From Cellvibrionaceae bacterium (GTDB lineage Bacteria > Pseudomonadota > Gammaproteobacteria > Pseudomonadales > Cellvibrionaceae): a DNA stretch of 64,000 nucleotides. Each line of letters opens with the position of its first letter. Position 1 is the first letter of the stretch. The notes beneath the pieces were generated by a model. That model had not been told where the DNA came from, searched no databases, and saw only the letters and a program-made list of their open reading frames with translations. The stretch covers positions 12,815 to 76,814 of the forward strand of contig JAWUVI010000021.1 in the NCBI GenBank assembly GCA_034112445.1, read 5' to 3'. Made by a program: the position numbers and the translations under genes. Positions 15,942 to 61,053 of the stretch are shown one piece after another.

Positions 15942-16754
15942 TTACAAACTGGCTAGACACTTAATTCCCGCTGGTAATTCTCCTTTAGGGTTCGCCAACT
16001 CTGCTCTGATTCGATAAGTCCCACTGGCTGCATCAATAATAGGGTCAACCATGGTGATTTTCGCTTGGTATTGACCATTAATCGGTGCCTCTGGATAAAT
16101 AGTCAAACTCCCCTTGGCAGAAATACTACCAAAGCTTTCATAAGGCATAACCAATTCAACTTTTAACGGATCTAAACGCGCAAGCGTTAATACTGGGTCA
16201 GTGCCGACAAACTCTCCAGACTCGTTAAACAAATCAATGACCACCCCATTGATTGGGCTTTTAATTTTTCTTAAATCCAAAACCTCACGGGAGTGGCGCA
16301 ACTCTTTTTGTGACACCTGATATTCAGTAGCAAATTCATCCCGCTCATGTATTGATATGAGGTCTTCATTATAAAGACTGTCATTTCGTTCAACTTGGCG
16401 CTGGGCAAATTCAGACCGAACTTTTGCTAGCTCAACCGACGCTGCTTCGACACCAGACTTGAGTGAAAATATAGGCTGCCCCTTACGAACTTTATCACCC
16501 AATTTAACTGAAACTGAATCTATTACGCCAGGTACTGGACTACTAATATCCACACGCATACTTGGCTCAATCATGCAGCCCATGGCCGGCAAATACTGTA
16601 TCACCACTGGTTGAGTAAGCTTGTTTTCTAGCGTGCTGGTTTCTATAGCACTTATCTCTAATGTATTTACCCCTGAAGTACTTGGCTCTTGAGCCAAGCT
16701 GGAAACACACACACACGATAAAATAAAGCTCGCTAGGCATTGCTTCAATGCCAT
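15942..16754 (-). CDS. Exported HlyD/membrane-fusion-protein-like periplasmic adaptor (short form)
   Basis: 270 aa. Signal peptide MALKQCLASFILSCVCVSSLAQE. Lipoyl/barrel-sandwich halves (GVIDSVSVKLGDKVRKGQPIFSL and IKSPINGVVIDL) separated by a short helical hairpin. AGGAGG Shine-Dalgarno 6 nt upstream. The start overlaps the SecA-like stop by 10 nt. Confidence 0.75.
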   Translation of the reverse strand: MALKQCLASFILSCVCVSSLAQEPSTSGVNTLEISAIETSTLENKLTQPVVIQYLPAMGCMIEPSMRVDISSPVPGVIDSVSVKLGDKVRKGQPIFSLKSGVEAASVELAKVRSEFAQRQVERNDSLYNEDLISIHERDEFATEYQVSQKELRHSREVLDLRKIKSPINGVVIDLFNESGEFVGTDPVLTLARLDPLKVELVMPYESFGSISAKGSLTIYPEAPINGQYQAKITMVDPIIDAASGTYRIRAELANPKGELPAGIKCLASL

Positions 16755-18832
16755 TTACTACCTCCTAAAAATGCTAAGGATGAACGTTCTTTCTCATCCA
16801 TCTTTAATGTCATTTTACGTTCACCAGCATGTTTCAACTCAAGCCGCCACTGACAATAACGTTGCAACCAACGAGCTAAGAAATTAAACGCAAATGGGAT
16901 TTTCCCGCTGACTAGAATGACTAATTTAGATAAATTTTTACCGTACATTCGAACCACAGAATCATCTAATGCCAAGATATATTCTACGCTGCCAGGATCA
17001 CCTTGTCTGGCTGATCTTCCAGCCAATTGCCTATCAACTCTCGCTGAATCATTCAGTTCGCAAATAATAACGTGTAAACCACCTGCCTCTCTGCATTCTT
17101 TATCGAGTTTTATATCGGTACCACGTCCTGCCATTGATGTGGCAATAGTAATGGCACCACTCACGCCAGCATCAGAAATAATTTCAGCCTCGGCACCATC
17201 TTGTTTTGCTGTTAGCAAAAAGTACGGTTGCTGCATTTCATCCATAATAGCCGCTAGACTTTCAGATTGATGTACCGAAGCTGTACCTATGAGAACTGAA
17301 CGTCCATCTAAAGCTTGTTTAACCGCTGCATCAACAATCACTTTTTCTTTACTGGGCTGATCGCGCAGCACTGTGTAAGCCGTGATTTTACGCAGTGATT
17401 TTTTTAACAGTGGCACTTTTTTTACAGGTAAATTATAAACCTTTAATAACTCAGACCGAACCTCTTTGGCCGTACCTGTCATACCAGCCACATTAAAATA
17501 TTTCTTAAAGAAATTTTGATAACTGATTTTGGCCAGTGTTTTACGTGGTTTGGTTAAAGGACAGCCCTCTTTAATTTCTATCAGTTGATGTAAGCCCCCT
17601 TCCCACGATCTATCTCCAGCCGGACGACCGGTGTACTCATCGACAATAACAATTTTGTCATCATCGACTATGTAGTGTTTATCTAAATCAAACAAATACA
17701 AAGCGGTTAAAGCTTGAGTCAACATTTGTTGGCGTCGAATGAGGTTGTACCACGGAGTATTTAAATCCAAACATATTTCTTCTGCAGCCTTACCACCTTC
17801 TTTAAGCATAACAATTTTACGGTTCGGCCAATCTATTTCATAGTGTTTACCATCGACCAAGTTACGAGCAACATCCAACACGGTTCGTAAAAAATCTTCT
17901 TCATCGTCCATATCGACTTCGCCACCAGAAATCACTAATGGGGTGCGTGACTCATCTATAAATACACTGTCAGCCTCATCGACTAAGGCAAAATTCAAAC
18001 CTTGATGCATAAGATTATTTAAAAAACCGGTATCGTCTTCGAGTACTTGGCGATGAATATCCAATGAATCTTGGCGTTCATCTAAAACTAACGAGTCTTT
18101 TAAGTAATCAAATACCAATTCATTATTTGAACAATAAACAATGTCACCGGCATAGATCGCCTTGCGGTCTTCAATGGTGTGCTCATTAATGATCGCCTGA
18201 GCACGCAAACCTAAATAACTGTAGAGCGGCAGCATTTCTTCACAGTCGCGCTCAGCCAAATAATCGTTGGTGGTAATTACGTGAACTTTAACACCGGCCA
18301 TTGCAGCGGTAGCGGTAGCCAATGTTCCGGCTAATGTTTTCCCTTCTCCGGTAGCCATTTCAGCCACCATGCCTTGCAATAAAATGAGCGACGCCCGAAT
18401 TTGGGTGTGATGATGACGCATACCTACAGAGCGCCCTGCAGCCTCACGGATAAGCGCAAATGATTCAATCACAGTCTTATTGTTTAGCCCACAACTAAGT
18501 AATGTAAGTTTGACCCGAGCAACTTCAGCTAAAAAATCTTCTTCCGATAATGCCGTATAAATATCTGATTGTTTAATGATTTTTTTAACGAGATGGCCGT
18601 CATTGATGAACAACTTTAAAATTGGAAACAGAACGGTTCGATAGGTTCCTCGTAAAAAACTATCAAGCCATGTGAGTTTAGGAATCGTTTTCTCAGGTCG
18701 ATTCTTGATTGAACTCATTTGCCGCATCGGGTATCGGAACAGAAGGTTTCTCAATGAAATAGACGGTAAAGATGTTGACCTTACAGATGTTGACCTTAAA
18801 GACTTCAATTTAAAAAACAGTTTATTAAACAT
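16745..18832 (-). CDS. Truncated SecA-like motor ATPase (NBD1, preprotein cross-linking domain and NBD2 only)
   Basis: 695 aa. Colinear with E. coli SecA from about residue 60 to the start of the scaffold helix. Matching segments: GMRHHHTQI, EMATGEGKTLAG (Walker A), VHVITTNDYLAERD, YCSNNELVFDYLKD, ALVDEADSVFIDESRTPLVISG (Walker B), YIVDDDKIVIVDEYTGR, WEGGLHQLIEIKEG, ISYQNFFKKY, GMTGTA, ATSMAGRGTDIKL, GGLHVI and RVDRQLAGRSARQGDPGS. It ends about 75 aa after NBD2. It therefore lacks most of the helical scaffold, the wing domain, the two-helix finger and the C-terminal SecB/zinc-binding tail. It carries a basic N-terminal extension of about 55 aa. Confidence 0.85.
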   Translation of the reverse strand: MFNKLFFKLKSLRSTSVRSTSLPSISLRNLLFRYPMRQMSSIKNRPEKTIPKLTWLDSFLRGTYRTVLFPILKLFINDGHLVKKIIKQSDIYTALSEEDFLAEVARVKLTLLSCGLNNKTVIESFALIREAAGRSVGMRHHHTQIRASLILLQGMVAEMATGEGKTLAGTLATATAAMAGVKVHVITTNDYLAERDCEEMLPLYSYLGLRAQAIINEHTIEDRKAIYAGDIVYCSNNELVFDYLKDSLVLDERQDSLDIHRQVLEDDTGFLNNLMHQGLNFALVDEADSVFIDESRTPLVISGGEVDMDDEEDFLRTVLDVARNLVDGKHYEIDWPNRKIVMLKEGGKAAEEICLDLNTPWYNLIRRQQMLTQALTALYLFDLDKHYIVDDDKIVIVDEYTGRPAGDRSWEGGLHQLIEIKEGCPLTKPRKTLAKISYQNFFKKYFNVAGMTGTAKEVRSELLKVYNLPVKKVPLLKKSLRKITAYTVLRDQPSKEKVIVDAAVKQALDGRSVLIGTASVHQSESLAAIMDEMQQPYFLLTAKQDGAEAEIISDAGVSGAITIATSMAGRGTDIKLDKECREAGGLHVIICELNDSARVDRQLAGRSARQGDPGSVEYILALDDSVVRMYGKNLSKLVILVSGKIPFAFNFLARWLQRYCQWRLELKHAGERKMTLKMDEKERSSLAFLGGSKWH

Positions 18833-20969: not shown

Positions 20970-20973
20970 AAAC

Positions 20974-22839: not shown

Positions 22840-22911
22840 GCAGGCTCATTACTTATTATTGGGTTGATGTATATTTATGTCGACGTAAAAGCACCTCTAC
22901 TAGAAAGTGTT

Positions 22912-23199
22912 TTATTCGGCGTTATCACCAATAGCACCAAAGCGGTTCTCATACTCATCGACTACTTTACCCAACAACAAACTCAAACGTTTGGCCGCAT
23001 ACGGGTTTAAAATAATACGATCAGAAAGGTTAATCGCCACTTCTTTCTGGCCCGTATGCCATGTCTGATTGGTTCCAAACAATAATGTGACTTCCTCACG
23101 AGTACTCGACACATTACACACATTCGCATACGAACTGCGCATTTGTGAATCATTCCACGTTAATTTTGGTGTGTTTTGCGCCTGCTTTTTATCGGTCAT
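22912..23199 (-). CDS. Small cytoplasmic protein, DUF3467-like
   Basis: 95 aa with an AAGGA Shine-Dalgarno upstream. Pattern SSYANVCNVSSTREEVTLLFG...RIILNPYAAKRLSLLLGKVVDEYENRFGAI matches my recollection of the DUF3467 family. No signal peptide. It lies immediately downstream of the giant gene (42-nt gap). Confidence 0.6.
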   Translation of the reverse strand: MTDKKQAQNTPKLTWNDSQMRSSYANVCNVSSTREEVTLLFGTNQTWHTGQKEVAINLSDRIILNPYAAKRLSLLLGKVVDEYENRFGAIGDNAE

Positions 23200-23241
23200 T
23201 GTTCATCCTTAATTTATAGTGTGTTAATTGTTTTGTTTGGT

Positions 23242-26200
23242 TTATTTACTCGTCTTACGACGAACTAGCTCACCATCACTCCAAGTAAACAGATTCTGCT
23301 CTTTGGCTTTTTGTGTCATTAATTCTTCTGAATTCTCAACACTGTAGCTCTGTTTGTTTTGGGTTTTCTGGCGAACTTGCCAGCCACGTCGCATGGCAGC
23401 CAAAGATATTACACCCAAGATAGCTTCAGCTCCACGACTAACACCTGAATTGTCATCGGAGTCAACGTTCGATACCTTCATCGTCGCATCATCCTCAGCT
23501 TTCTCTTGTGGAATTGGGTTGCCATCTTCATCAAGAAGCACACAGCCTTCCGGTATAATTGGATCGCCGTTTTCATCAAGTTCAACTTCAATGGGCTCGC
23601 CGTTTTCATCGACAACTTGAACGTCACATGAGACCTCAGACTCACCAGTATCTTCAGTTTCTTCACCAGCCGCCGTAGCCGGTAAGCTCTGTAAAAAGTC
23701 TTGCAGAGAATCATTAGCCGATGCGCCTTCACTTCCCGTACCCACTCGTACCAGCAATAAATTACTGCTGTGGATATTGGTGGTGAATTCGCCCGCTACT
23801 TGATAAACGTCTGACCAATCCAAGTCCAACTCAATGGCGAAGGCGCTGTAGTATTGCCCCTGAGTCGCACCGATTAATTCAAGCGATGCTGGATCCGTAG
23901 AAATCAGTACACCACCAACGGTTTGAGTAAAGCGACCATAACCACCCAAGGCGATATCTTCTATGAAGTTGGCCTCAAACAAATCACTCTCGTGTCCGCC
24001 AAGTAACCAATCAAATCCTTCACCACCATCAATGGTATCGGCGCCACCTTTTAACGGATCGATCGTATCAGCAAAGAACTGGCCGACTTGATCGTAACCG
24101 ATGATGCCGAAATCACCGAAGATGATGTCATTACCAGCGTCACCATAAAGTTCATCTTCGGCGCCGCCACCCATAATCCAGTCGTTGTCATCGCCACCAT
24201 GAACCACATCCTGACCGCCTTGGTCAGGCAAGGTGGTTACCATTTCAACAAAGACATCATTCTGGAAGGTCATTTCACCGCTGTCAGCCAAGACCATATC
24301 GTCCCCGGCACCTGCATCAACGGTATCGTCATCAAGGCCAGCAATAATACGATCCTTACCGGCACCTGAGTCGATTGAATCATCACCCGTAGTACTTGGG
24401 TCTGAATCAGTTGAGGCTAAGCGAGACGCTATGCCATTGGTGTATTCAATGATGCCGTTATCACCAAAGATGTCATCGTCACCACCGGTGGTAGTAATCG
24501 TGTCATCGCCCTGACCTGCCAGGATGGTGTTGTCTCCGCCAGTGCTGCGAATTATGTCCTTACCGCCATTGATGAGATCAGTGTTCTCGATGGTTTCAAT
24601 AACACCGGCTGAATCGTAATTAATCTCGCCGTTGTCACCAATGACGCGATCATTGCCTGTGCCCGTATCCACGGTATCACTACCTTGGCCTGCAATAACG
24701 GTGTTATCACCTTCGCCTGCATCAATAACGTCATCACCACCTAGGTCGGTTACCGTACTGGTGGCGCGAGTTAAAATTGCGTCAACATAGATAAGTTCAC
24801 CGCTGTCAGCTAACACAACATCGTTACCAGAGCTCGTGGTGATTTGGTCGTTATCTAGACCGGCAATAATACGATTATTACCAATACCCGCATTAATAAT
24901 GTCGTCGCCTGTAGTGGACTCATCAACATCAATGGAAACCAAGCGAGAAGCAACACCAGTGGTGTATTCAATTAAGCCGTTATCACCAAATATGTCATCA
25001 TCGCCATCGAGTGTAGTAACCGTGTCGTTACCTTGACCAGCAATAATAACGTTACCGCCATGGCCAGCGGTAATAACGTCATTGGCGCCATTAACAATAG
25101 ATGTACTGCTCAGACGATCAATAACTCCCGCTGTTGTCCAAATCATTTCGCCGCTATCGCCAATGATATGATTAGAACCCGCACCGGCTGTTACTGTATC
25201 TTCACCATTACCGGCGATGATCCAACCAGTAACGTCCGTTAATGTAATTTGATCATTACCGCCTTCAGTCTCAACTGTAGAGACCATGCGGGTAACAACA
25301 TCATTAACCACTTCTATTTGACCATTATCAGCTAAGACATGAGCCGTTCCAGCATCAACGGTAACAACATCATCACCGAGTCCAGCTAATACGCGATTAT
25401 TACCATCCGTTACCGTAATCGTATCTATTGATGCTGTAGCAGGCGTTATATCCGAAGTTTGTAGTAGAACAGCCAAGCCATTTGCATCGAAGTCAATAGA
25501 GCCATTGTCACCTATAAGATTATTGGTGCCGCTAGCATTAATCGTGTCCTCACCAAAGCCAGCAATAACACTGTTAACGCCAGTGCCGCCGACGGTAATA
25601 TCATCCGCGCCACCATTACCGGAGACATCGGATTCAATTCGCGAAATAACGCTACCGTTGTAAGTAATTGTACCTAGATCACCAATAACGACATTGCTGC
25701 CAAGGCTATCGATAACCGTGTCATTGCCTAATCCAGCAATGATTCGATCATCGCCTTCATTGCCCATTATGTAGTCATTACCCATAACACTGGTGCTATG
25801 CGATTGAATCGTAATAGCCATGGTGCTGGTGATTTCATCGGCAAACAATGGCGTCGCAGTACCATCGCTATTATCAGTAACTACGCCCTCATCGCCAAGG
25901 ATGATGTCAACACCTTCACCGCCGTATAAGTAGTCATCACTCGCACTACCAATAATCAAGTCATTACCAATTTGGCCATGGATACGTGTCGCCAAAGTTG
26001 AGCCACTGGCATTAACTGTATCGTCTCCATCTTGGCCAAAAATATCTAAGCGACGCGCTCCGGTATCGCCGCCAGTATTAAGAACGTCATGAGAGATGAC
26101 GTCAGTGACTGTGCTGGTAATACGATCGCTGCCTTCATTGCCATAAAGCGTGGTAACGCTAACATCCGAGCCTGTCACATCTTCAAAATAAACACCGGTG

Positions 26201-29200
26201 ACAGCAATAACATCAGCGCCTTGGCTAGCCCAAATAACCAGGTCGTTATTGTAATTTCCAGCGGTTGCGGTGTAAGTAATATCAGCTACGGCCATGCCAA
26301 CCATACGACCATTACTCAAAGTGGCGGTATCGGCTACTAGGCTGTCGAAATCACTGACGTACAGTGAGTTAGCATCAGCGCCGGCATCGATATTTAATAA
26401 GCCATTTATGCCATCTAAAGTACCGTGTGCCACGCCTATATTAGATAAATCACCATTAGCATCACTGGTGATATCTATTCGATCTTCACCGGCGTGCGTA
26501 TTGATATTAGTAACTGTGTTGCTGTTAGTTGATTGAACATTAATAACGTCAGCCGCAGAACCCGTATCAATATTGAGTGTGTCGACACCGTAATAGTTAA
26601 TACCGTTAGTGCGAGTTTCAAGCGAAGCATCACCAGCAGCAACGGTTAATGAAGCTGTTTCATGCTCACCTTGGAAGCTAATCAACCAACCCTCAGCGAT
26701 TTTAATCAAACCGAAGTTATTGGTATGCGGTAAAGCATCATTACTGTTATTTGGGTTCAGAATAAGAGTCAACGCATCTCTAAGAGCTTTTTCATCATCA
26801 ACTTCATTTCCAAGCCAATATTCAGCCCAATCGATATTGGTTGTGCCTAGCTCTTTGGGGCCCAGACCTTCAGGGTCAATTCCAATCACGGTTAATTGAT
26901 AATTACTGGTGCCATCAACTGTTAGAATCTGAGTGTTTCCTGCAACGCTAATAGGTGAACCATCACGTAGCGTGGTGATACGTGCATCGACAGAAATATC
27001 ATCCGCTGCGAACAGACCTGTTGTCGTAGGATCAATATCGACAGTCATTTGTGGAATATTAACACCCGACATTTCACCACCAAAGGTGATGCTGTATAGG
27101 TTGCCACTGGCTGATACTTCTCTTTCAACCGTAATGCCTTGCATATTGGTCATTTCTAGAAGAGTACCAAAGTGATTATTGAGTGCCATTGCCATGTCGT
27201 CAGAACTGATACCGTAGGCCATTGTGGCTATACCGTAATCAACCCCAAAGTTCATCCCGAAAGTTCCACCAGCGGCACGAATGGCTAACTGCTGTTTCTC
27301 CGCTAACGAAGGCATATCCAAACCAATCAAACTGGTGCGTCGAACTTGCAACTCATTGCTGACCTCATCACCAGAGTCATCAACATTAAGGATGTCTCCA
27401 ATATTATCGCCATCCGTTAGATCCGCTTCACCCATATCAATGGTCAGTAAGGCGGCAATTTCATCGGCCAACTGCTCATTACTGCGAACGGTAATAACAT
27501 CATCGCCCGCTTCAGTATTGATACTCGTCACACCTGAAACGGTTTTGACTAGAACATCGTCATCACCTTTACCGGTGGTGATGTTGGTTGCTCCCTCGTG
27601 AGTCGATTCAATGATGACCTGATCGATACCATGACCAAGGTCAAGACTCAGTATTTCAAGGCCTTCATAATGAATACCACCAGTAATATCAGTACCCGCA
27701 ATGGTCACATCATCGCCCATACCTAAGCCGTAAACGCGGCTTTCCGTTATGGTGACGCTTTCATCGGCCGGGCTATTACCGTTGTATATATTCAATACAT
27801 CCACTTGGACAGCTTCATCCACTCGGGTATTGAGGTTTACCGGACGAATAAAGTATGAGTCGGTAGGCAGTATGGTCATGTCCTCCGGTAGATCTAAGGT
27901 CAAGGTCGTTAAGTCTTCAGAAATACCCAATATATCGACAACGGTGAGTAGTTCGCCATTGCGCATGATGGATATTTCATAAGGATTATTCTCAATACGA
28001 GGATCAAAACCATCGGCAAATTCGTTGGATTCAGGATCCCAATGTTCAGCATTTGAATCACTAAATTCATTGCCTGAGACAAAGGTAATTAAACCGTCTT
28101 CTGGGAATAAATTAGTTTCCAGAGGAAGCATGACAGGATTATTGAGTTTGTAATCCGCTCCAATTTGTTCTCCGCCGTTTATAAATACTGGGCCACGTAT
28201 TTGATTAACTCGCTCTGAGCCAGGCGCAAATACTTTGACATCACCTCCATCAATGACCAAATCGTTAAAGGCTTGGACATCTATGGTGCGAATGTCACTC
28301 CAATCTCCGGCAGCTCCAGACGTAAATACTTCACTAGAAACAATTCCAGAATTTAAAATCACCTGAACCTCAGGGTCGAGTTCAGCGGCGTCGGTGAAGA
28401 CTAAATCACCGTTATAGGTTCTGGTTTCAACACCGGCAAAATCAACGGTCACGTCGGCATCTGGAGCACCCGAAAGAACCATGAAGTAATTGTCATCTTG
28501 CCAGTTTGGTGAGGTGTTATAGTCCAGATATTTATCCGCTACATCATAAGTGATTTCATAACGATCACCTTTGTTAATAACGATATCGGTACGATCTAGA
28601 GTAAACGTATCCGACTCTACGTCATAGAATGCAATGGTCGAAGATTCACCCGCATCTACACCCGACAACATAGTCAACGTCATACCTTTCAAATCAACAA
28701 AGTCTTCATCAAGACCATGCCCATCAAGAGAGATATTCAGTTGATAACTGTCAGTCATCCCCTGCTCCCATGTACTCGAATAAAGTACGTTATAGTCAGA
28801 GGTCGTGGTGGAGCTATAGGCCGCTAAATGGATGGCCTCAGGATCAAAGATGTCACCATTCAATTCATAATCGTATACATAGCTGGTTGTTATCACGTTA
28901 GCCGAACGGGAATAGTTAACTTCATAACCTACTTCAACACTGTAAAATCCAGCCGTATCAAACAATAACAACAGCATTGGATCATTGATGTCGGTACTAC
29001 CAACATCCAACTCGTCACTTAAATCCATTATTTCACTATTAGGAATGAGCACTCGGCTCTCGCCAGTTCCCTGATAGATTTTCAAATAAGGAACATAACT
29101 CGCTGTATAGGTAGTAGTGGTGTTTATCTGTTGAATGGTAAGTTCATCAAGATAATCAACAACTTGAGATCCCCAAAAGGTGTCTACCGTTTTAGTGTTA

Positions 29201-47200: not shown

Positions 47201-50200
47201 CCAGCCGTAAACTCGCCCGTTAAAGGATTAACGGTAAAACCGGCGCTGGCTCCTAACACATTATCGGCATAGCCATTGCCATCAAGGTCTTCAATTGAAC
47301 CACCGAGAGGCATAGATTCGATGGGGAAATACAATGGTAATTCTAATTCTGCCGTACCGTAGGCTTCTGCTTCAAAGCTATCCACGATTTCATGCAGTTC
47401 TAAATAGCCAACGTGACCATCTGCGTCAGGGGCTGATGCATCAAAGGCACCGAATCCAGCACTAAAGCCTAACTCAAGACCGGCATGGCCGTCCTTACCA
47501 ATCATCCCTAGAACCAAATCTAAGGAATCCGGAATCCCAACGATTCCCAAAGCACCGGCTGTGCCACCAAGATCAATGCCAACCGTTAAATCAATATCTT
47601 CGGCCGTGGCACTTAATAACACCTCAAAACCGGAATTTTCATCGATGTAAAAAATCGGGTCTAATACATTACTGAGATCAAAACCAAAACCTAAGTTCAA
47701 GCCCATTTCGGCCAGAAGATCTATGGTCGCGTCAGAAGTAATTGACAGGACTTCAGTTAAATCATCAATAGGTAGATCCCACTGATCGAGACCTAAGTCG
47801 TCGATACTGAAATCCAGGTCAAAGCTGTGTTCATAGATGGTGTTGATATTAAAATCGACATCAAGAACCGAATTAGCGTACTCGGCTGTGATTAACTCAA
47901 TATCACTGGCCAGGTCAAATAAGGTACGTAACTCTTCATTTAAAAAGTCGACCATTTCATAGAGGTTGTCGGAAGCTCCACGAGCCGCATCCAAAATAGT
48001 CTGGATACCTTCGCCAACACCTGTGGCACCTTCACCAAGCAAGTCTTCAACACTTTTACCTACAAGCGGAATGTCTTGATAAAGAAGTCCAGTTTGTACG
48101 TACCATTCACCGGTAACCGCTTGATAAGCACCTTCTAGTTCTGATGCTGACAAGGCGATAAGTTCAGACTCGAAAATTTCTAAGCTTAAATCGATGCCTC
48201 CATCTGGACGAGAAGCTTTAAGCTCTTGCGCCCAATACTCAGTGCCGTCAAGCATTGTCCATAACTTGAGAGTAATACTTCCTTCTGCTGTACGTACAGA
48301 TTTAACAACCTGCTTACCAAGAGCGTCAATTGTTGGGGTATAATTCGCAGGGGTTATTACAACACCTTCAGAGTCAAGAACTTCGGCTACGAAATCAATG
48401 GCGGGAATCGCGCTTACGGACCAAATCTCTTTTTGGAGGTTGGCTAGCTCAGTGCCTATAGCAAGGTACTCTTCGCCCATAACTTCATTAAGAAGGTTAT
48501 CGAGCATATCGAGAATATTGTCGAGAGACAGTAATCCCATGTTTTTAAGATCGAAAATATCTTGCGGGAAAATGATGTCATAATCGGTTTCAAAGGTACC
48601 CGACTCATAGGCAAAACCAGCACCTAGGTGCATTAGATTATCAGCGTAACCATCCGCATTTAAGTCTTCAGAAGAACCACCCGCTGGGTTAGTTTCAGTT
48701 GGGAAGAACAAGGGCATATCAAAACTGGCGTCGCCAGCCAGAGTTATATCTAAGGCATCGGTCCCTAATTCGCTCAGTTCTACAAGAGAATAACGACCAG
48801 CATCGGTATCAACCAAGTTAGCGCCGGCTTGAAGACCAATAGAGCCTTCACCGTCAACGCCCCACAAGCCAATTTCTTGACCGAATATGCCTATAGTCGC
48901 TTGTGCACCAAGATCTACACCGGCGGCTGTAGCGGTAAAATCAATACCTGAATCATCACCCAAATAGGCGTAGTTTAATGGGTTAACCGGACCTCGGGCT
49001 GCGAATCCAGCTTGGCCAAACTCTTTAACATCGAAATCAAGATTGAAATTAAAATCCAGTGCGGCATCTAACAATAGAGTACCGGAGGTACCGAACACCA
49101 CATCGATCATATCGAGAGGTAATCCTAGTAATTCCCCTATTTCCACTTCGGTTAGAGCAACATCGAAATCTAACTCGTAGAGAAAATCCCAATCGAAATC
49201 CCAGTCAAACCCAAGATTCCAACCGTCAAAGACTAAATCAATATCAATCACAGGCGGAGTGATGCCGAGACTGCCGAACAACGTATTCAACTCTAGCTCT
49301 AGCCAGTCAGCCAATTCAGGCAAAGAGGAGAAACTGGTACGAATGTCGCCAATGAGGCTAGAGAAAAAGTCACTGATGCCATCAAATTCAGGCACCATTA
49401 ATCCACCCACCTCTATTTTGGGCATTAAAGAACTAAAGATTCCGTCTAAGCTGACATTGAAGCCTGGTATCTCAAACCCTAAAACATCGATATCACCTAA
49501 AACATCAAACGCGCCTTGCAACATGGCCAATAAATCATCGAGTGATAGATTAGACAGATCAAACAGCTTCGAGAGATCCGGCATATCAAATTGCAGATCG
49601 CTAAAGAAATCGCCTATATCACCAACAGAAACACTCGGGAAACTAGGTGTACCAAAACTAGGGACATCTGGGAAACCAGGTGCACTAAGACTCGGGAGAC
49701 CAGGAAAATTAGGGGTGCTGATGGATATAGTTGGCAATGGCGGCAAGCCGCCTAAATCTGGAATACCGCCCAAATCTTCAACGGTTGGCAATGAAAGATC
49801 CATACCGCCAACTTGAATGGCTAGCGGCAAGTCAGCTTTAAAACCACTGCCTTTGCTCATGGATATAGCTAATTGATTATCCAGCAGTGCTGTACCTGCG
49901 GCCTCATCATAATCGGCGTGAACCGAATCGAAGGCATTTACAACACCATCAAGATCAGAAAGAGTCAGATCACCACTATTGCCAAGACGCAGCTGCGCCA
50001 ACATTTCTAACGAACCATCAACCACTTCGCCTTTAATAAGGCCGAAGTCTACGGTTACATCAATATCATCTTCACTGATTCGAGATTCGAAATTAATGCC
50101 TGCATCGCGAACGTAAAACTCACCCGCTTCATCGTTAGGACCAACGCCAAAGGCAAAATCAAAGCTGAGGTTATTTGTCAGCCTAGGCTGAAAATCAACA

Positions 50201-53200
50201 CTGACACCGGGAATATTACTGAGAGCACTACCCAGATCAAGACCAACAGCGTCTAGTTCTTCAAACAAATTGACGTTAACGCCAAATTCTAACAAGCGGT
50301 TATTAAGGGTGATATTTAAGATATTACGGTCGGTAACGCTGGCAGTTTCATTTAGAACTAAGTTGCCATCAGCGTCGGCCACAATAGTGTTTCCGTTCAC
50401 CAAAAAGTCGCCAGTGCTCTCATCCTTAGAGATATTAATAATTACTGTTTCAAGTCCGCTTTGTGTTCCCGATAAATAAGCAGCGACATAACGGAAAGAA
50501 ACTTCTTGGCTTTCACCGTTCGCTAAATCTGGAAAATCAGTCGCTGGGTCAATTGAATAGCTGTATGTGCCATCGTCATTGAATACCAATGTGCCCGTAT
50601 TCGGCCCTTCTAGACCATCAAATAAGCTGTAAGAGTTGGGAGCTATCGTATCTAAGAGAGCGAATAATTCATCACTGGTAACTACTTGATCAGCTGGAAG
50701 CACTTCTAAAGCTTTTGCGTCAAAGAACGCCTGTAGCGGGGTGATAATTTGATCTTGAATGGCCGCGCTAATAATACTGGAAAAATCAACCGTACCGCTT
50801 TGCTCGATTGCATCACCATTGGCATCAAAACCAGTGGTTATTTTTTCGTAAAGTTCGCCGAAAGTGGCGTCCATGATTGGCACAGGCGTATCTAATAGTT
50901 CGTCCCAATCGGTGTAATTATCGGCAATTAAATCCACCCATTCTTTGAGTTTTTCAAGGCCGTCAATTAATGAGGTTTGAGCCACTGTATCAATAGTGAT
51001 ATTGGCTTGCTCTTGGGTATTTGCAGATTGGCCTTCAACGAATTTTTCTACATTGAAATCAGTGGTGACCGTATTAGCGCCACTAGTAACCGTTATATCA
51101 CGGGTTATCGCTGTCGCTAGATCTATTGCTGTGCCATCGCCACGGCCCATGTTGTAGGCTAAATCTGTGGTTACTTGTGAAAAGTCTAGGGTGTCAGTAT
51201 CCGCATCACCGGCGGTAATTGTGTCACCACCCCAGTCGTCAGCAAAAATAAAGGTATCATCACCTGCACCACCCGATAATGTGTCGTCACCGGCACCGCC
51301 TGCGATGATATTTGCCGCGCTATCGCCCGTTAATGTGTCATTTCCAGCACTGCCTATCAGGTTTTCAATGCCGGTTAATGTAGCAATACCATTAGCGGGA
51401 ACATCGTTATCAACTGCTGTACCAGTACCAACAGCACCTTGTGACAAGTCAGCATTGACATTAACATTTTCGATGTTGGCAAAGCTGACTGTATCAATAC
51501 CATCACCACCAACGATTACATCGCGCAAATCAGCGCCCGCAGTCCAGGAACCTAGTTTAAATAGGTTGTCTTCATCGCTTCCTGTAATAGTATCTACAGC
51601 TGAAGTAGAGACTGAACCAAAGACATTTTGAATATGGGCAACACTGGTGAAGCCAGTGGCGGTTTGAGTTTCTTTATTACTTAAATCGACGGTTATATTC
51701 GAGGTATAACCTGCAGAGAAATAATCCAGGGTATTGGTGCCCTCACCTGCATCAGCCGTTCCACTAAAGTCTCCACCATCTTCAACAGTAAAAGTATCGT
51801 CACCTGAACCACTGGTTAAAACCCAAGTACCCGAATTGGTACCAGACACAGTTATTGTGTTGTTCACAGACGCTGGTGCCGTTGAAGCTAAGGCGCTCGG
51901 GGTAACATCCGCATTAACAGTTAAACTGTTAGAGGAAAAAGTAAACGACAAATCAGAGCTTGCCGCTGACAAATCAAGCGTGTTTGTACCAGCCGTATCG
52001 GTGATAGTGTCAGCTTGTCCTGTTGGAGAAGCTGCCAACTCAATAGGAGACAAACGATCTGACCAAGTGTCGTCGACTATATAAGTATCGTTATCTCCTT
52101 CTCCTTTGAGCGTGTCATTACCTTTACCACCATCAAGAATATCGTTACCTGCACCACCGCTAATCGTATCGTTGCCTTCACCACCCAGCAGTTTATCAAT
52201 GCCAGCACCGCCTACTATGGTGTCATTAGCACCGCTGCCATCTATAACGTTCGCATTATCATCACCCGTTAAGGTATCTTCGAACTGCGTACCGATCAGA
52301 TTATCAACATTAGTTACTGTTCCTGTAACACTGGTAGTTGTTCCAACAACAAGACTGGATAAATCGACGATTACACCAGAGTCGTCACCTTTATCGTACT
52401 GACTGTAATCCAGTGTGGCTGAACCCGTCCCGCCATCAATATCACCAGCAAACTCAACATCACCAACAAAAACAAATTGATTTTCGCCGCTGCCGCCGAT
52501 TAGTTTTTCTACATTGGTCGCAATAACCGACTGTGTGACTATTTCAGTAAGCGTAAGTGTTTCGGTTCTGTAGACAGGCGTTGTTGTATCGTCTTCCGGT
52601 ATATAAAATTCCGCACCAATTGTGCCGTTGGTCAAGCCAATGCGGACCAATTCTGTAATCGTAACTTCTTGCGTGGTGGAAACGGTAACCTGAATATTGT
52701 TAGTTGGGTCGCCATTCTCGTCCAACTCTTTTTCAATGCTAAACACCAAATCAGATGTGACAGCGCTAAAGTCTAAAGTACCTTTTTTACCGGTAGCCGT
52801 AGCAGAATCATCAAGCAGAAGTTCTGTCTCAGAATCCCCCCCCCACTGGTTTTTAAAGACGTAACTATTGTTACCTTCACCGCCTTTAATCAATTCAATA
52901 TTTTCTAATGAACCGGAACCGACATAAACGCTGCTAGCCGAATCGGCAGCAACCAAAGAGCCTGAGTCGAAAGTCATGGTTAAATCGGTGGTTACCGCAT
53001 CAACCTGTGCAATGCCTAGGGTTCCATCAGAAGCCGTAACGGCCTCTATACCCGCAAAACTGATGGTATCTTCACCACCTTCAATACCTTCAATAACCCC
53101 ACGCACAGTCAAATGAGCGCCATTGGTTAAACCTTTGGCCGCTGTTACGATGAGATCCGCACCACCACTGACGGTGTTTTCTCCTTCTGTAACAACCAAA

Positions 53201-56200
53201 CCACTGGCTGCTTGAGCCGTGAAAGTTAAATTAATGGTTTGCTGAGTACCATCGGATAAGTTGAGAACGATGCTATGAGAAATATTTTCAGCAACTGTAT
53301 CAAGCTGCGCTTCATCGCCAACCACAAAATGGTAACTTCCGTCTGCATTGACAACAATATAATCTTGGCCGCCCCAACTGTAGCTCTCCCCTAAAGGAAA
53401 TGAGCCACTATTGCCAATTGCAGAAACTTTAACGCCTTCATTTAATGTAAATTGACCATTCAACACTAAGCCCGCCGCTTTAGTGTCAACACTCACAGTA
53501 CCGGAATTAACCGTAATTTCACCGTTAACCAGTGTTACTGTTTTGGTCAGTGTTTCTTCTGTACCCAGCTCGTTTTGAACGGTTACTGTGAACTCATCAG
53601 TAAAGGTTTTACCTATAGCTTGTGTGGCAGCACCAACAGCTGGCTTGTATGCATAACCGCCATCTGTATTGACAGTTAACGTGGCACCACTGGTTAATGT
53701 AATCGGTGACCCACTGGTAATGGCGGCATCGTTAATTTTAGCAACGCTAAAGGTATCTATATCTTGGCCCCAATCACCCGAAAATAGATAAAGATCATCA
53801 CCATGGCTGCCAACAAGACCATCAGCTCCTGCACCGCCGAGTAAAATGTCATCTCCCGTACCGCCAAAGATCAAATCGTTATCAGCACCGCCGTCTATGT
53901 AGTCGTTATCGTCTCCGCCATAAATAGAGTCCGCACCTGCCCCACCACTGATGTGATCAGCTCCGGCTTGGCCTTCGATAATATCGCCTTGGGTAACATC
54001 AGATTCATCACCACCAACAATGGTGTCCATACCGGCACCAGCAATAATAAGGTCTGCTGATGAACCTCCAGTTAGAGTGTCATCATCAATATCACCAAAT
54101 AATTGAGTCTCAATACCGTCAGCAGCAGTGAACGTATCATCTTTATATGTGCCAACTAAGAGGTTAATGCCGGTAACGTTTCCACCAAATCCTAAAACAC
54201 CAGCCGCTGTTGCACCGGTTTTCAAATCAACGGTTAAGCCTGTTCCTGCAATTACAGTGTGTGCTGAACTAGGGCTGGAAGCACCTTCAGTAGCCGTTGA
54301 GTCAACAGTTAGAACACCTTCCGCTGAACGACTAATAACAAAATCTAGGCTATGAACTGTTGGTGTAATGTCATCGCCTGCAGCATTGGCAACTGAATAT
54401 GACACAGATAAATTTGTAGACGCGCCATTGGCTAGGTTTTTAAAGTCTTTATCTAGGTTAACGAGATACTCATAACTACCATTAGCTGCCAGCTCAACTT
54501 CACCGAACCCAGTAACAGGGTTTGATGTGAGAACGTAATTAACCGCATTAGTTACGGATAATTGACCCGATACGACAGCTGGGATTGTGACCGCTGCTTC
54601 GTAAGCCAAAGTTTGAACATTACCGGTGAGCTCGCCGGCTGTGGAATTTAGATATCCGCTTATGCTTCCATCTTTTTCCACAAAATATGAATTATTACCT
54701 GCACCACCAATAATGTTGTCCACTTTCTCGAAAGAAGCGCGGCGAACTTTATCATCCGTGCCAATAGTGGAGACAATTACGGTTCCGTCTTCTTTAATAG
54801 TGAATTTTAGATCGGTTGTAACTTGACTGAAATCGAGGGTTACGGTCGAAGACTCGCCATTCTCAATCAGTAACGTATTGAGCCAATTATTTTGAAAGGC
54901 ATAAGTGTTAACCGCACTACCACCAACCAGTTTCTCTATATTAGTGATGCCACTGATACTATCAGTACCAACTGTTGCACCAACTCCTGTAGAACCAATG
55001 GTAAACAAAACATCCGAGCTGGTGTAGGTGAAATCTATAGAATCTAAAGAGCCGTCGGCTGAGCCTTCATTAATAACGGTGCCATTCCAACCCGTGCCGC
55101 TGAAAACATAAGCATCGTCGCCTTTGCCGCCGGTTAAGTTATCACTACCGGTTGAGCTGTAAAGAACGTCTGAGCCGTCGCCACCTAAAACAGTATCATG
55201 GCCTTCACCACCAAAGAGCAAATCGTCTCCACTACCGCCTTCTAGAGTATCTGCGCCGCCTTGGCCCCATATTTCATCATCGCCTGCACCGCCTATCAAG
55301 GTATCAGCCACCGAACCATCAGCTCCGATTAATGTATCGTTACCCTGACCACCATCAACCGTTAACTGGGATGTTGTGGTATTGGAGATATAATCATCAC
55401 TAGAGCTGCCTTGTACGAGGTTGTCACTGAATATTAAGCCTTCACCTTCGGCAGCGCCTAGATCAATATAATTAAATGTGAAACCTTCAAAGTTAACCCA
55501 ACTGTCATCTGAATTCTGCGCTGAAAGAGCATCGTATAATTCATCAGCTTGAGCTGTAGAGGTGTTATTAACGACTACAGCACCTTCAAAGTTAGCGGCG
55601 TAACTGAGATTAAAGCTGGTGGTATTACTGTTGGTACCCGCTGCCGCTTTAAGCGAACCAGATAAACTACCCGCGCCACTGAAGATCACATTATTATCAG
55701 ATCCTTTACCCAAAATAACGTCGGAAACACCTTCCGCAAAAATAACGTACTCGCCGCTGGATAGATGAATCGTTACCTTAACTTCGCCGTCACCATGTAT
55801 ATCAACATCGACAACACCGGTAACACTGGATAGATCAAGTAAATTACTGCTTTGCGAACCGTCAAACTGAAGACTTATAGAGCCCGCTTCTGTAATGGTA
55901 CCGATAACATAGGTACTCGAGGAAAGGCCCGACGAAGGTACTTTAATGCTCTCAATATTAGAGCCACTGATATTAAAGGTAAGGTCTTTTTGTACAAAAC
56001 TGGTGATTTTATTAGTGACCGTTAAGGTCTGCTCTGGCGCATCAACAAACAAAATGCCTTCATCGTTAATGTCTATTTCAACTTGATTTAGGTCTACTCC
56101 ACCTTTTATACCATTTGCTTGAATTTTGGTTTCTACTTTTTCTTTCCAAAGCTGCATAATGACTTCAGTTAGCTTTTCATTACTGACGACTTTGGCAATA

Positions 56201-59097: not shown

Positions 59098-59178
59098 CTT
59101 TGGTTTTAACGTTTGTTTTACTTAATTTTTAAGCTTTAAATTTTCTAGCAACTTGGTTCTAATCAATCAACGGCCAAC

Positions 59179-60507
59179 TCATTGCAGCCAGCCATTAATA
59201 AATTCTATGTCCGTATCGATCAGTACGCCGGCGGCGCGCTTTAAACGGATGTAGTTAATGGCGTAATCATTGCGGGCAGCAATGTAATTTTGCTGAGCGC
59301 TGGCAAGATCTTGCTGAGCATCTAACACCGCAATAATGCTGTACAAGCCCGTTTGAAAACCGCGCTCTTTGTTGTCTAACACCGCGTTCTGCGCCACAAC
59401 CGTCTGCTTAAGTGCTTTGATTTGAGCGATATTAGCTACGATACCCTGAAACGAGGATTGCGCTTGGTTCTGCACAGTACGCTGAGCCAACACGATGTCT
59501 TCTTGAGCTTTATACATCCGCTGATAGGCTTCACGACGACGCGAAGAAACGGCGCCACCTTGGTAAAGAGGCAGATCAAATTTAAGCGTCAGATCTTCTT
59601 GTTCGATATCATTCAAACCACCGTACAAAGACCCCTCTTTGACTTGCGTAAAATTCTGCATCGTCAATGACAAGGTTGGGTAATGCCCTGCCGTTTGCGC
59701 TTTGATTTCATAGCGAGCTTCTTCTTGCTTTTTCTGTGCGATTTTTACGTCAGGGTTATTGGCTAAACCTTGGGTAATCCAAGCTTCTGGATCGGCTGGT
59801 TCAGGTAATACCAAGGGTATTTGATCGCGCATAGCCGCTAGCGGCTCAGGCAAACGCCCAATAATTTCAAACAACGCATAACGTGCGTCGTTGTAAGCCT
59901 TGTTAAATTCACTTTGTTTGGCCACAGAGGACAAATAGCGAGCTTCCGCATCGTTCACTTCAGCCGAACGGCCTATGCCCGCCGAGTGACTTTTTTGTGC
60001 GTACTGCAAGTGTCTTTTCAGTGCCGCTTTTTCAGCGCCTATGGAGGCCAATTGCTCACGAGCCTTAATTGATTCAAAATAGGCTTCCGCTACCCGCAGC
60101 AACAAATCTTGGCTGGCCTTTTCAAACTCTGAATCAGCGCGCGTATTAGCCGCTTTCGACTGACCGTAACGCATCCAGTATTCATAGTTAAAAATAGATT
60201 GAGACAGCGTTAATGAATTGGTTTCAGAGGTGAAATTCTGAGCACCCGTTGAACCGAACACCGTATCACTGGTTTCGTTAATTGTTTGATCTGATTCAGT
60301 ATTTTCTATCGAATAAGACAGGCTAGGTAACAATCTAGCTCGGGCTTGCTTTATCCCTTCAGCGGTTGCTGCGCGCTCAAAGCCAGCTCCACGAAACATA
60401 GGGTCTGATTGTTTGGCCAGCGTCATTATGTCGACCAGATCTTCTGACCAACTGGTGGCGGCAACTGTCATGGCTACTGCAAATGCACATCCGTGAACCA
60501 ACTTCAT
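59179..60507 (-). CDS. TolC-family outer-membrane efflux/type I secretion duct protein
   Basis: 442 aa. Signal peptide (MKLVHGCAFAVAMTVAATSWSED). Two-fold internal repeat of the helix-rich TolC pattern (LPSLSYSIENTES..., YPTLSLTMQN..., LDAQQDLASAQQNYIAARNDYAINYIRLKRAAG). GAGGG Shine-Dalgarno. It lies 82 nt upstream of the giant ORF. Confidence 0.85.
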   Translation of the reverse strand: MKLVHGCAFAVAMTVAATSWSEDLVDIMTLAKQSDPMFRGAGFERAATAEGIKQARARLLPSLSYSIENTESDQTINETSDTVFGSTGAQNFTSETNSLTLSQSIFNYEYWMRYGQSKAANTRADSEFEKASQDLLLRVAEAYFESIKAREQLASIGAEKAALKRHLQYAQKSHSAGIGRSAEVNDAEARYLSSVAKQSEFNKAYNDARYALFEIIGRLPEPLAAMRDQIPLVLPEPADPEAWITQGLANNPDVKIAQKKQEEARYEIKAQTAGHYPTLSLTMQNFTQVKEGSLYGGLNDIEQEDLTLKFDLPLYQGGAVSSRRREAYQRMYKAQEDIVLAQRTVQNQAQSSFQGIVANIAQIKALKQTVVAQNAVLDNKERGFQTGLYSIIAVLDAQQDLASAQQNYIAARNDYAINYIRLKRAAGVLIDTDIEFINGWLQ

Positions 60508-60543
60508 CCCAAAACCCTCATTATTTTTTAATAATTATTATGA

Positions 60544-61053
60544 TTAAACTGCACTCAAACGAATGCCATACACCTGATAACTGTCACTGCGAATGGCCAG
60601 AGTGATTTTTAACTCACCCTCATCACCAAATTCACTTTGTGGAGAAAACTCAATTTCGTAATGGAGCACAAACACTCGAGCGTTACCTTTGGTGGCCGCC
60701 AAGGTCGAATAATTGTATGAACCCGATTCAATCGAGTGGAATGCTTTGCGTAACTTTTGGAACTCGGAGGTTATGTCTTCTCGAGTTAATTTGGCCTTAG
60801 TCGCCGAACCGAATAAATCGTATAATTTTTGGTCGTCGTTTTTGTTAAACGCATAGGTAAATTGCGACAACAAATGCCTGCGAATATCGGGAGTGATTAT
60901 GTCGGGAAGTTGATTATCTGAAGTCGATTGCGAGGCGTTTTGCGACGATATTTGGAGAGAGTTTTTAGCACTTATGTTTTGCTGGCCGAACCATACCGTG
61001 GCTGACAGATTCGTCAACAGAAGCACCACGACTAAAGCCCTAAAAAAGGTCAC
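60544..61053 (-). CDS. Hypothetical exported or membrane-anchored protein (first gene of the cluster)
   Basis: 169-aa ORF with a GTG start preceded by GGGAAG. N-terminal hydrophobic helix ALVVVLLLTNLSATVWF, a Ser/Gln-rich linker and then a ~110-aa globular part. It is 36 nt from the tolC-like gene. No family recognised. Confidence 0.55.
   Translation of the reverse strand: MTFFRALVVVLLLTNLSATVWFGQQNISAKNSLQISSQNASQSTSDNQLPDIITPDIRRHLLSQFTYAFNKNDDQKLYDLFGSATKAKLTREDITSEFQKLRKAFHSIESGSYNYSTLAATKGNARVFVLHYEIEFSPQSEFGDEGELKITLAIRSDSYQVYGIRLSAV

Follow-up and report, generated by a model that had tools for sequence, protein, structure and literature searches.

Secondary SecA_DEAD proteins, in which the wing and scaffold domains are missing, were described by Kamneva, Poudel & Ward in 2015 (PLoS One 10:e0129066; PMC4452313) as members of a four-gene core, which encodes a GAF-HlyD protein, a Peptidase_M50-HlyD protein, the SecA_DEAD protein and a HlyD/biotin-lipoyl adaptor. 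In the loci of that study an OEP gene was occasionally found beside the core and an ABC transporter was absent, and the SecA_DEAD protein was proposed as the ATPase and the M50 protein possibly as the membrane component. The secondary SecA_DEAD proteins bore no relationship to the canonical SecA encoded in the same genomes; in the tree they formed a clade near actinobacterial SecA2, and the distribution of the module was wide, patchy and suggestive of horizontal gene transfer (PMC4452313). The system was predicted from genes alone; cargo, RTX, DUF4347, DUF3467 and terminal motifs are not mentioned in that paper (PMC4452313), and later or experimental work on the module was not found by a literature search. 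Here a related cluster of eight minus-strand genes was analysed in a 64,000-nt stretch of DNA from a marine Cellvibrionaceae bacterium (contig JAWUVI010000021.1; the whole stretch is called the window).

The same four proteins as in the 2015 module are encoded in the same order, the SecA_DEAD protein again lacks the wing and scaffold, and no ABC transporter is encoded in the window. Beyond that module, a TolC-family protein, a 169-aa protein (p169), a DUF3467 protein and an 11,951-aa LEPR-XLL-like/DUF4347 RTX protein belong to the same co-directional cluster. Judged by its sequence, the locus is a complete and unusually full example of the predicted secondary SecA_DEAD/M50/HlyD module, and what it appears to add to published knowledge is a connection with a giant LEPR-XLL/DUF4347 RTX cargo, a DUF3467 partner and terminal motifs. 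An earlier note on this DNA had stated that no characterised system of this composition was known; this stands as far as experiments are concerned, whereas the composition and the hypothesis had been published in 2015 (PMC4452313), so that the hypothesis is not original. The reading favoured here, held with a confidence somewhat above even, is TolC-dependent one-step secretion in which a SecA-type motor and an M50 protease take the place of the ABC transporter, and we infer that the giant acidic RTX/DUF4347 protein is the dedicated cargo of the module.

For the comparison of gene neighbourhoods, 82 distinct loci from Gammaproteobacteria, Desulfobacterota, Alphaproteobacteria (among them Mesorhizobium, Ensifer, Thioclava and Methylorubrum) and Betaproteobacteria were used, and the window proteins were searched against the six-frame open reading frames (ORFs) of these loci. 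Room for all four genes was available in 58 loci, and 51 loci extend at least 7 kb beyond the M50 gene on its upstream side. The order GAF-HlyD, M50-HlyD, SecA-like, small HlyD was kept in 56 of the 58. A co-directional ORF of at least 1,000 aa ends just before the module in 40 of the 51 loci, usually leaving the locus end at 2,000-2,850 aa, and an acidic, Gly-rich ORF of at least 1,000 aa was found anywhere in the locus in 44 of the 51. Where the locus is rearranged, the giant gene still accompanies the module in a divergent or downstream position. No ORF of this length passed the acidic/Gly-rich filter in the remaining seven, one of which (L035) contains a 2,489-aa upstream near-miss. An ABC nucleotide-binding domain was detected within 10 kb in only 2 of the 51 loci and was never adjacent to the module; the probe was the nucleotide-binding domain of HlyB, which is adequate for ABC ATPases generally. 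The conserved order, the giant neighbour and the rarity of ABC domains together indicate that these genes belong together functionally and are not clustered by chance. Conservation of the neighbourhood in other genomes, which the earlier note had named as a check, was thus borne out by the four-gene order and by the giant RTX-type ORF nearly always beside it in four proteobacterial classes.

The same survey bears on the alternative that the giant protein is exported by a conventional type I secretion system (T1SS) with an ABC transporter encoded elsewhere, the module being an accessory for leader processing, quality control, tethering or release, or GAF-based regulation. RTX repeats are present close to the C-terminus of the giant, as in T1SS substrates; M50 proteases are processing enzymes rather than channels, and the M50 domains related to that of the window are leader peptidases of ribosomally synthesized and post-translationally modified peptides (RiPPs), placed beside separate exporters (the daptide and YydH/LiaK models); and the ABC survey covered the window and the 51 loci, which leaves room for a transporter outside them. 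Yet T1SS adhesin loci normally hold the ABC and adaptor genes beside the cargo gene, whereas 49 of the 51 loci have no ABC domain within 10 kb, as the ABC transporter was likewise absent from the loci of 2015 (PMC4452313). Three adaptors, and often TolC, are present, and three TolC-docking adaptors without a transporter would go unexplained. This alternative is therefore considered unlikely, and it is, like the two weighed below, made less likely by the neighbourhood statistics and by the missing SecY-coupling domains of the SecA-like protein.

With respect to the SecA-like protein, the ORF at 16745-18832 matched SecA_DEAD (3e-89), SecA_PP_bind (1e-23) and P-loop_SecA (1e-39) in the Pfam search, in which the wing/scaffold model SecA_SW was undetected, and the truncated SecA-like ATPase proposed in the earlier note is supported accordingly. 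The alignment reaches residues 37-603 of the 841 residues of B. subtilis SecA and residues 54-646 of the 871 residues of T. maritima SecA, and the aligned part comprises both nucleotide-binding domains, the preprotein cross-linking domain (PPXD) and the first portion of the scaffold helix; the wing domain, the two-helix finger, the C-terminal tail and about 240 C-terminal SecA residues are absent. The canonical SecA models (TIGR00963 / PRK12904) gave 507-517 bits, below their cutoffs of 800-862, and the SecA2 models of NCBIfam gave 453, 424, 384 and 361 bits against cutoffs of 1085, 930, 725 and 1100, respectively. Walker A (TGEGKT), DEAD, RGTDI and GRxxRQGD are conserved in the family (68 members), which also has a C-terminal LLSFSG motif in common, and from these motifs the protein is predicted to be biochemically competent as an ATPase. 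Translation more likely starts at Met36, giving 660 aa, as both the alignment of homologs and the gene call of the Joint Genome Institute (JGI) suggest. Homologs of about 664 aa number in thousands. Truncated SecA-like homologs are often named 'prepilin peptidase' by NCBI (Amphritea, Aestuariicella and Vibrio sp. UCD-FRSSP16), a label that looks like a propagated mis-annotation because no domain evidence here backs it.

This domain composition bears on a two-step alternative, in which the SecA-like protein feeds the housekeeping SecYEG, the M50 protein acts like a signal peptidase, and the adaptors and TolC export a periplasmic intermediate. Such a route would supply the missing inner-membrane channel; the protein is clearly derived from SecA and has kept the preprotein cross-linking domain, and the use of periplasmic substrates is known from MacAB-TolC. 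The parts by which SecA couples to SecY/SecB are however missing from the SecA-like protein, namely the two-helix finger, the wing, most of the scaffold helix and the C-terminal tail; the cargo leader has no hydrophobic core, an unfolded acidic chain of 11,951 aa in the periplasm seems implausible, and the fusion of protease and adaptor argues for a single coupled machine. The two-step alternative is accordingly regarded as quite improbable.

The best match among hidden Markov models (HMMs) for the M50 fusion was daptide_HExxH (NF041824; E 1e-40, 140 bits against a cutoff of 300), followed by YydH/LiaK (NF058609; E 1e-11, 45 bits against a cutoff of 225), and these RiPP-metalloprotease models matched residues 68-408. 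Peptidase_M50 (PF02163) missed its cutoff narrowly (26.2 against 27.2 bits), and precomputed PF02163 matches exist for many homologs. Across 35 homologs H210, E211, H214 and N304-G-N-P-L...D312 are invariant, and the catalytic motifs HExxH and NGNPLxxxD fall inside hydrophobic segments, of which about seven are distributed over residues 158-445; on these motifs an M50-type protease that is biochemically competent is predicted. The M50 assignment of the earlier note is hence carried by the daptide_HExxH match and by the invariant motifs, the PF02163 score itself being just under the cutoff. In an AlphaFold2 (AF2) model (predicted local distance difference test score, pLDDT, 80.2) a three-strand/three-helix N-domain is followed by a helical membrane core and a C-terminal part, and in this model residues 447-711 have the fold of MacA, MexA and AcrA (Foldseek E about 1e-10) with a short alpha-hairpin, so that the C-terminal third is, as modelled, a true membrane-fusion-protein fold and the HlyD part proposed earlier is upheld. 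The PqqD-like label given earlier to the N-domain obtained no Pfam match in the fusion itself; indirect support for an RRE/PqqD-like domain comes from the AF2 topology and from PF05402 matches on three homologs. At least 589 genome stretches in a one-genome-per-species collection encode an M50-HlyD relative.

These matches are also the starting point of the view that the module exports or processes another substrate, for example the DUF3467 protein or a small peptide, as RiPP or bacteriocin systems do, the giant gene being just a frequent neighbour. In favour of this view are the top HMM match of the protease, which is a RiPP maturation metalloprotease model, the RRE-like domain, a typical feature of RiPP pathways, and the 7 of 51 loci with no qualifying ORF of at least 1,000 aa (with the near-miss of L035). 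Against this, the giant ORF follows the module across four classes and through rearrangements, the conserved terminal motifs of the giant occur nowhere else in the loci, the DUF3467 protein is uniformly conserved and has no variable core, unlike a RiPP precursor, and RiPP-modifying enzymes are absent from the window. A substrate other than the giant is thus considered very improbable.

The two other adaptors of the module were also identified by profile searches. The GAF protein matched GAF (23.3 bits, cutoff 22.4) and HlyD_D23 (5.5e-17), with a single transmembrane (TM) segment at residues 358-376; for its N-region, nothing usable was obtained in the Pfam scan at E<=10. The GAF-HlyD gene occurs in essentially every module locus. 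The small adaptor, which carries a predicted N-terminal signal, matched RND_mfp (115.2 bits, cutoff 94.9) and HlyD_D23 (5e-19), and its gene closes the module in nearly all loci. In alphaproteobacterial modules an additional gene is found between the M50-HlyD and SecA-like genes; in L045 (12328-13194) it belongs to the SapC family (PF07277, 3e-72), and gaps of about 0.7-1.1 kb occur at the same spot in L052, L056, L065, L069, L082 and L083. SapC is otherwise tied to T1SS/S-layer export loci, and it adjoins TolC and giant genes in Chlorochromatium (bioRxiv 10.64898/2026.03.19.712371).

The presumed cargo, a putative surface or secreted protein of 11,951 aa, contains 10.5% Gly, 10.4% Asp, 5 Cys, scattered RTX repeats and 53 GGxGxD-like motifs; it is acidic, almost Cys-free and RTX-rich, like proteins exported unfolded. 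DUF4347 (PF14252) was matched at residues 150-339 (7.5e-49; 166 bits, cutoff 24.6). Full-length neighbouring giants of 7,971 aa, 8,205 aa and 12,586 aa were found in Neptuniibacter, Vibrio sp. DW001 and Amphritea, respectively. The N-terminus of the giant is visible in six loci (L029, L043, L071, L075, L082 and L083), because the gene is divergent or downstream there, and in all six the motif LEPRxL(L/F/Y)SA follows a basic leader of 24-63 aa with a net charge of +1 to +12, and is itself followed by a linker and then by DUF4347. The motif was also present in P0365, P0369, P0497 and P0426, and was found in none of 733 background ORFs; the giant of Vibrio DW001 has been described as a LEPR-XLL protein (PMC10868602). 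The leader of the window protein is basic, about 44 aa long with a net charge of +8, and ends with a divergent motif (...AEQ-MEARNLLSA-D). A second class of DUF4347 giants has the N-motif LEPRxxFDGA (P0378, P0435, P0391, P0405, P0382, P0478 and P0416); in two of them an autotransporter-like ESPR start (MNxIYRxxWNE...) precedes it, and several contain a second, internal DUF4347.

At the other end, many cargo tails consist of an Ala/Gly-rich hydrophobic stretch ending in GW, followed some 30-45 residues on by basic-aromatic-x-x-W, as in the relative P0369 (7,100 aa; ...ARRRGW...RRYSRW). An HMM seeded on 17 cargo tails matched 28 tails, all of them from the ORF just upstream of the module, and none of about 740 unrelated ORF tails, and a strict regular expression caught 17 of 49 tails. 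The tails of alpha- and betaproteobacterial cargos are clade-specific. With the last 90 aa of the window protein nothing was found by jackhmmer, and nothing usable was obtained for its tail with Pfam at E<=10. The conserved C-terminal element of the related cargos has no established identity as a T1SS signal.

The DUF3467 protein (PF11950; 1.4e-22, 80 bits, cutoff 25) is encoded between the cargo and the module in 28 of the 51 loci, with an identity to the window protein of 48-80% in 16 loci of different classes and of 64-89% among 24 database homologs. Its AF2 model has four strands and a C-terminal helix (pLDDT 67.6). A SecB-like chaperone was considered and is unsupported, as no Foldseek match in the PDB had an E value below 2 and none was to SecB, and the PDB sequence search was empty. 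DUF3467 can also be a domain of a larger protein, because ORFs with a DUF3467-like region were found near some deltaproteobacterial modules, in L047 (3365-4498, 378 aa; PF11950 25.9 bits) and in L028 (4033-5301, about 420 aa; a weak phmmer match of 45 bits to the window protein). A motif 'KLTW.DS' that had seemed common to DUF3467, the SecA-like N-terminus and the cargo tail was discarded; in the alignment the SecA-like version really reads 'RPE...(W/F)L(D/E)', and its resemblance is therefore coincidental. The invariant N-terminal strand of DUF3467, (I/V)RWDDSxM (IRWDDS), resembles the end of the cargo tail, RR(F/Y)xRWD (RRFxRWD), which could be either mimicry of a binding site or chance.

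The outer-membrane duct was matched by TIGR01844 type_I_sec_TolC (281.6 bits, cutoff 225.15) and OEP (2.7e-49), and a TolC homolog adjoins the module or the cargo also in L029, L043 and L051 (3 of the 51 loci). For p169, which has an N-terminal hydrophobic signal, no family was obtained in Pfam, even at E<=10, or in NCBIfam. It recurs with the module at another position, since homologs with weak scores (31-40 bits) are encoded immediately after the small adaptor in L008, L009, L011 and L014. Taken together, the HlyD, SecA DEAD/PPXD, DUF3467, DUF4347 and OEP/TolC assignments of the earlier note agree with the profile-HMM searches.

For the favoured one-step secretion, the following course can be proposed. 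The cargo would be kept unfolded in the cytoplasm, possibly with the DUF3467 protein, and the RRE/PqqD-like domain on the cytoplasmic side of the M50 fusion would recognise its basic leader, which ends in LE(P)RxLLSA. The leader would then enter the M50 active site in N-in/C-out orientation, which is the one preferred by S2P enzymes, and would be cleaved. The SecA-like ATPase, which comprises the nucleotide-binding domains and the preprotein clamp and has lost the SecY-engaging parts, would drive the chain from the N-terminus to the C-terminus through an inner-membrane assembly formed by the M50 protein together with the adaptors' membrane anchors, and further through a periplasmic tube of three different adaptors docked on TolC. 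Outside the cell, folding of the RTX repeats with calcium would block back-sliding, and the conserved C-terminal tail may act as a stop, as a tether or as a second recognition element.

Several points weigh against this reading and should be set beside it. Every step of the course is inferred, and its weakest point is the inner-membrane conduit, because S2P/M50 proteases are not known as protein-conducting channels. The window protein itself fits the terminal motifs imperfectly: its leader scored below the cutoffs of NF012209 LEPR-8K/LEPR-XLL (12 bits against 17) and PF07595 Planc_extracel (12.8 against 25.5), and its tail (ISLAAMRRGW, about 45 aa, LFTW) is similar by eye alone and misses E<=0.01 with the tail HMM. 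PqqD was undetected in the M50 N-domain by Pfam at E<=10, and an ABC transporter may be encoded beyond the sequences surveyed. The motor is also not uniform. In L038 (2558-4168) and L054 (12164-14098) a divergent SecA_DEAD protein (Pfam 1e-29) stands at the SecA-like position, in which Walker A could not be aligned by eye and is apparently lost while the family C-terminal motif LSF(A/S)G is retained, and in L028 and L072 the M50-HlyD gene adjoins the small adaptor directly, with no SecA-like gene. ATP hydrolysis by the SecA-like protein may hence not be universally required, and, in view of these four exceptional loci, some lineages may be able to do without the motor or to replace it. In exponential phase the GAF gene alone was detectably expressed in Methylobacterium extorquens (PMC4452313). 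Finally, the first 345 aa of the window protein (leader and DUF4347) matched 13,558 representative clusters, almost all of them via DUF4347; LEPR-XLL/DUF4347 proteins thus far outnumber the sampled module, many of them must use other routes, and the module is unlikely to be the only route for these proteins.

A wider claim, which we put forward as tentative and rather doubtful, is that the LEPR-XLL/'Planctomycete extracellular' motif is the targeting and cleavage signal of an ABC- and SecYEG-independent pathway with a polarity opposite to that of the T1SS, that is, of a new numbered secretion system. In such a pathway the truncated SecA would drive giants from N to C via the M50 protein, which would also cut off the leader, and three adaptors into TolC; tethering or termination of the chain would fall to the conserved C-terminal tail. 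If true, this would explain the occurrence of the module and of the motif in both Proteobacteria and Planctomycetes/Verrucomicrobia.

The features of the locus are collected in Table 1. The eight tightly packed, co-directional minus-strand genes at 15942-61053 announced in the earlier note are all present in the ORF listing of the window, with intergenic gaps of 36, 81, 42, 72 and 4 nt from the first gene to the last, followed by overlaps of 8 and 10 nt; its spacing holds except for the second gap, which had been given as 82 nt. The 4-nt gap presupposes the ATG at 20969 as the start of the M50 gene, and a gap of 97 nt replaces the 8-nt overlap if the SecA-like gene is read from Met36 (18727).

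Table 1. Positions in the window, strand and supporting evidence of the genes, domains and terminal elements of the locus
Feature	Position	Strand	Evidence
p169, exported or anchored accessory protein, 169 aa	60544..61053	-	N-terminal hydrophobic segment; no Pfam/NCBIfam family
TolC-family outer-membrane duct	59179..60507	-	TIGR01844 281.6 bits, OEP 2.7e-49
Giant acidic RTX/DUF4347 protein, 11,951 aa, presumed cargo	23242..59097	-	DUF4347, RTX repeats
Basic N-terminal leader with LEPR-XLL-like MEARNLLSA	58939..59097	-	Sub-threshold NF012209, PF07595
DUF4347 domain, aa 150-339	58081..58650	-	PF14252 7.5e-49
Cargo C-terminal tail, ...RRGW ... LFTW	23245..23469	-	Resemblance by eye
DUF3467 small cytoplasmic protein, 95 aa	22912..23199	-	PF11950 1.4e-22
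GAF-TM-HlyD adaptor, 621 aa	20974..22839	-	GAF 23.3 bits, HlyD_D23 5.5e-17
RRE-like N-domain, M50-type intramembrane metalloprotease and HlyD fusion, 714 aa	18825..20969	-	daptide_HExxH 1e-40
Truncated SecA-like ATPase, 660 aa from Met36 (ORF reaching 18832)	16745..18727	-	SecA_DEAD, PPXD, P-loop_SecA
Small HlyD/RND-type adaptor, signal peptide, possibly lipoprotein, 270 aa	15942..16754	-	RND_mfp 115.2 bits

The remaining ORFs of the window were assigned to a histidine kinase, a flavin reductase, TrmA, DUF2489, RmuC, a TPR protein, a HAMP-GGDEF-EAL protein, a PD-(D/E)XK nuclease with a UvrD-type helicase, DAHP synthase and NfuA; none of them is an ABC transporter by profile searches, as the earlier note had maintained for the 64-kb window. 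The window belongs to contig Ga0455760_021854 of the JGI metagenome 3300041953, and its closest named relatives are Cellvibrionales, e.g. Candidatus Pelagadaptatus, Aestuariicella and Simiduia. Within a few kb on the downstream side of the module, a HAMP- or PAS-GGDEF-EAL protein is encoded in the window (6000-8084, minus strand) and in Neptuniibacter and Amphritea (L001, 14084-16219; L005, 14320-16455); ORFs of 713-735 aa lie downstream of the module in L008 (plus strand) and in L010-L013 (minus strand). By analogy with Lap-type adhesins, the GGDEF-EAL neighbour hints at control of the module by cyclic di-GMP (c-di-GMP). The GGDEF-EAL protein of the window has no LapD-like periplasmic architecture, and the Rfam scan of the whole window gave no match and thus no c-di-GMP or other riboswitch upstream. 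At 8262-14566 (plus strand) the gene of the PD-(D/E)XK nuclease (918 aa) overlaps that of the UvrD-type helicase (1,182 aa) by one base; the pair resembles AddAB/RecBCD and is unconnected with the secretion locus. Antisense ORFs of 80-185 aa, at 16917-17270 (plus strand) over the SecA-like gene and in large number on the plus strand within 23242-59097, almost certainly reflect no more than the composition of the long genes on the minus strand.

If the one-step secretion favoured here is true, bacteria would have a TolC-dependent protein secretion that works without an ABC transporter, in which a SecA-derived motor has been re-used outside the Sec translocon and an intramembrane protease has become part of an export machine. 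A function would then be assigned to three widespread orphan features, the LEPR-XLL/Planc_extracel motif, DUF3467 and the 'secondary SecA_DEAD' proteins, and the arrival at the surface of some of the largest known bacterial proteins (8,000-12,600 aa here) would be explained. The module is present in cultivable organisms, among them Neptuniibacter caesariensis MED92, Vibrio sp. DW001, Amphritea, Desulfoluna limicola, Mesorhizobium, Ensifer and Methylobacterium extorquens AM1.

Among the known systems, the T1SS of giant RTX adhesins (LapA/LapBCE, SiiE and MpIBP) and HlyA/HlyBD-TolC likewise use a TolC duct and HlyD adaptors, with the genes of cargo and machinery clustered, and their cargo is also an acidic, Cys-poor RTX giant, probably exported unfolded and folded by calcium outside. 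The window differs in the absence of an ABC transporter of the HlyB/LapB type, in the presence of three adaptors instead of one, of which one is fused to M50 and one to GAF, and in the SecA-type motor, which implies N-to-C polarity, opposite to that of the T1SS; a LEPR-XLL leader is found in place of the LapG-cleaved N-terminal retention module of T1SS adhesins. In exporters of the colicin V CvaAB-TolC type the leader is cut, as would be the case here, by a protease borne on the exporter together with an adaptor and TolC, but the protease is a C39 cysteine peptidase on the ABC transporter and small peptides are exported, whereas in the window the M50 domain is on an adaptor, the SecA-like ATPase is separate and the cargo has about 12,000 aa. 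RiPP M50 proteases (NF041824 and NF058609) share the HExxH intramembrane core and the N-terminal RRE-like domain, and differ in having no HlyD fusion, SecA-like genes or giant cargo. The accessory SecA2 of Gram-positives and mycobacteria is similarly a second SecA paralog dedicated to substrates, while the organism here is Gram-negative, a SecY2 or Asp partner is absent, and the SecA-like protein has a far more truncated C-terminus and adaptor and TolC partners. Finally, in TriABC-OpmH more than one adaptor species is likewise present in the periplasmic tube on a TolC-type duct; that system is an RND drug pump with two adaptors, whereas three adaptors are encoded in the window, with no RND, ABC or MFS transporter.

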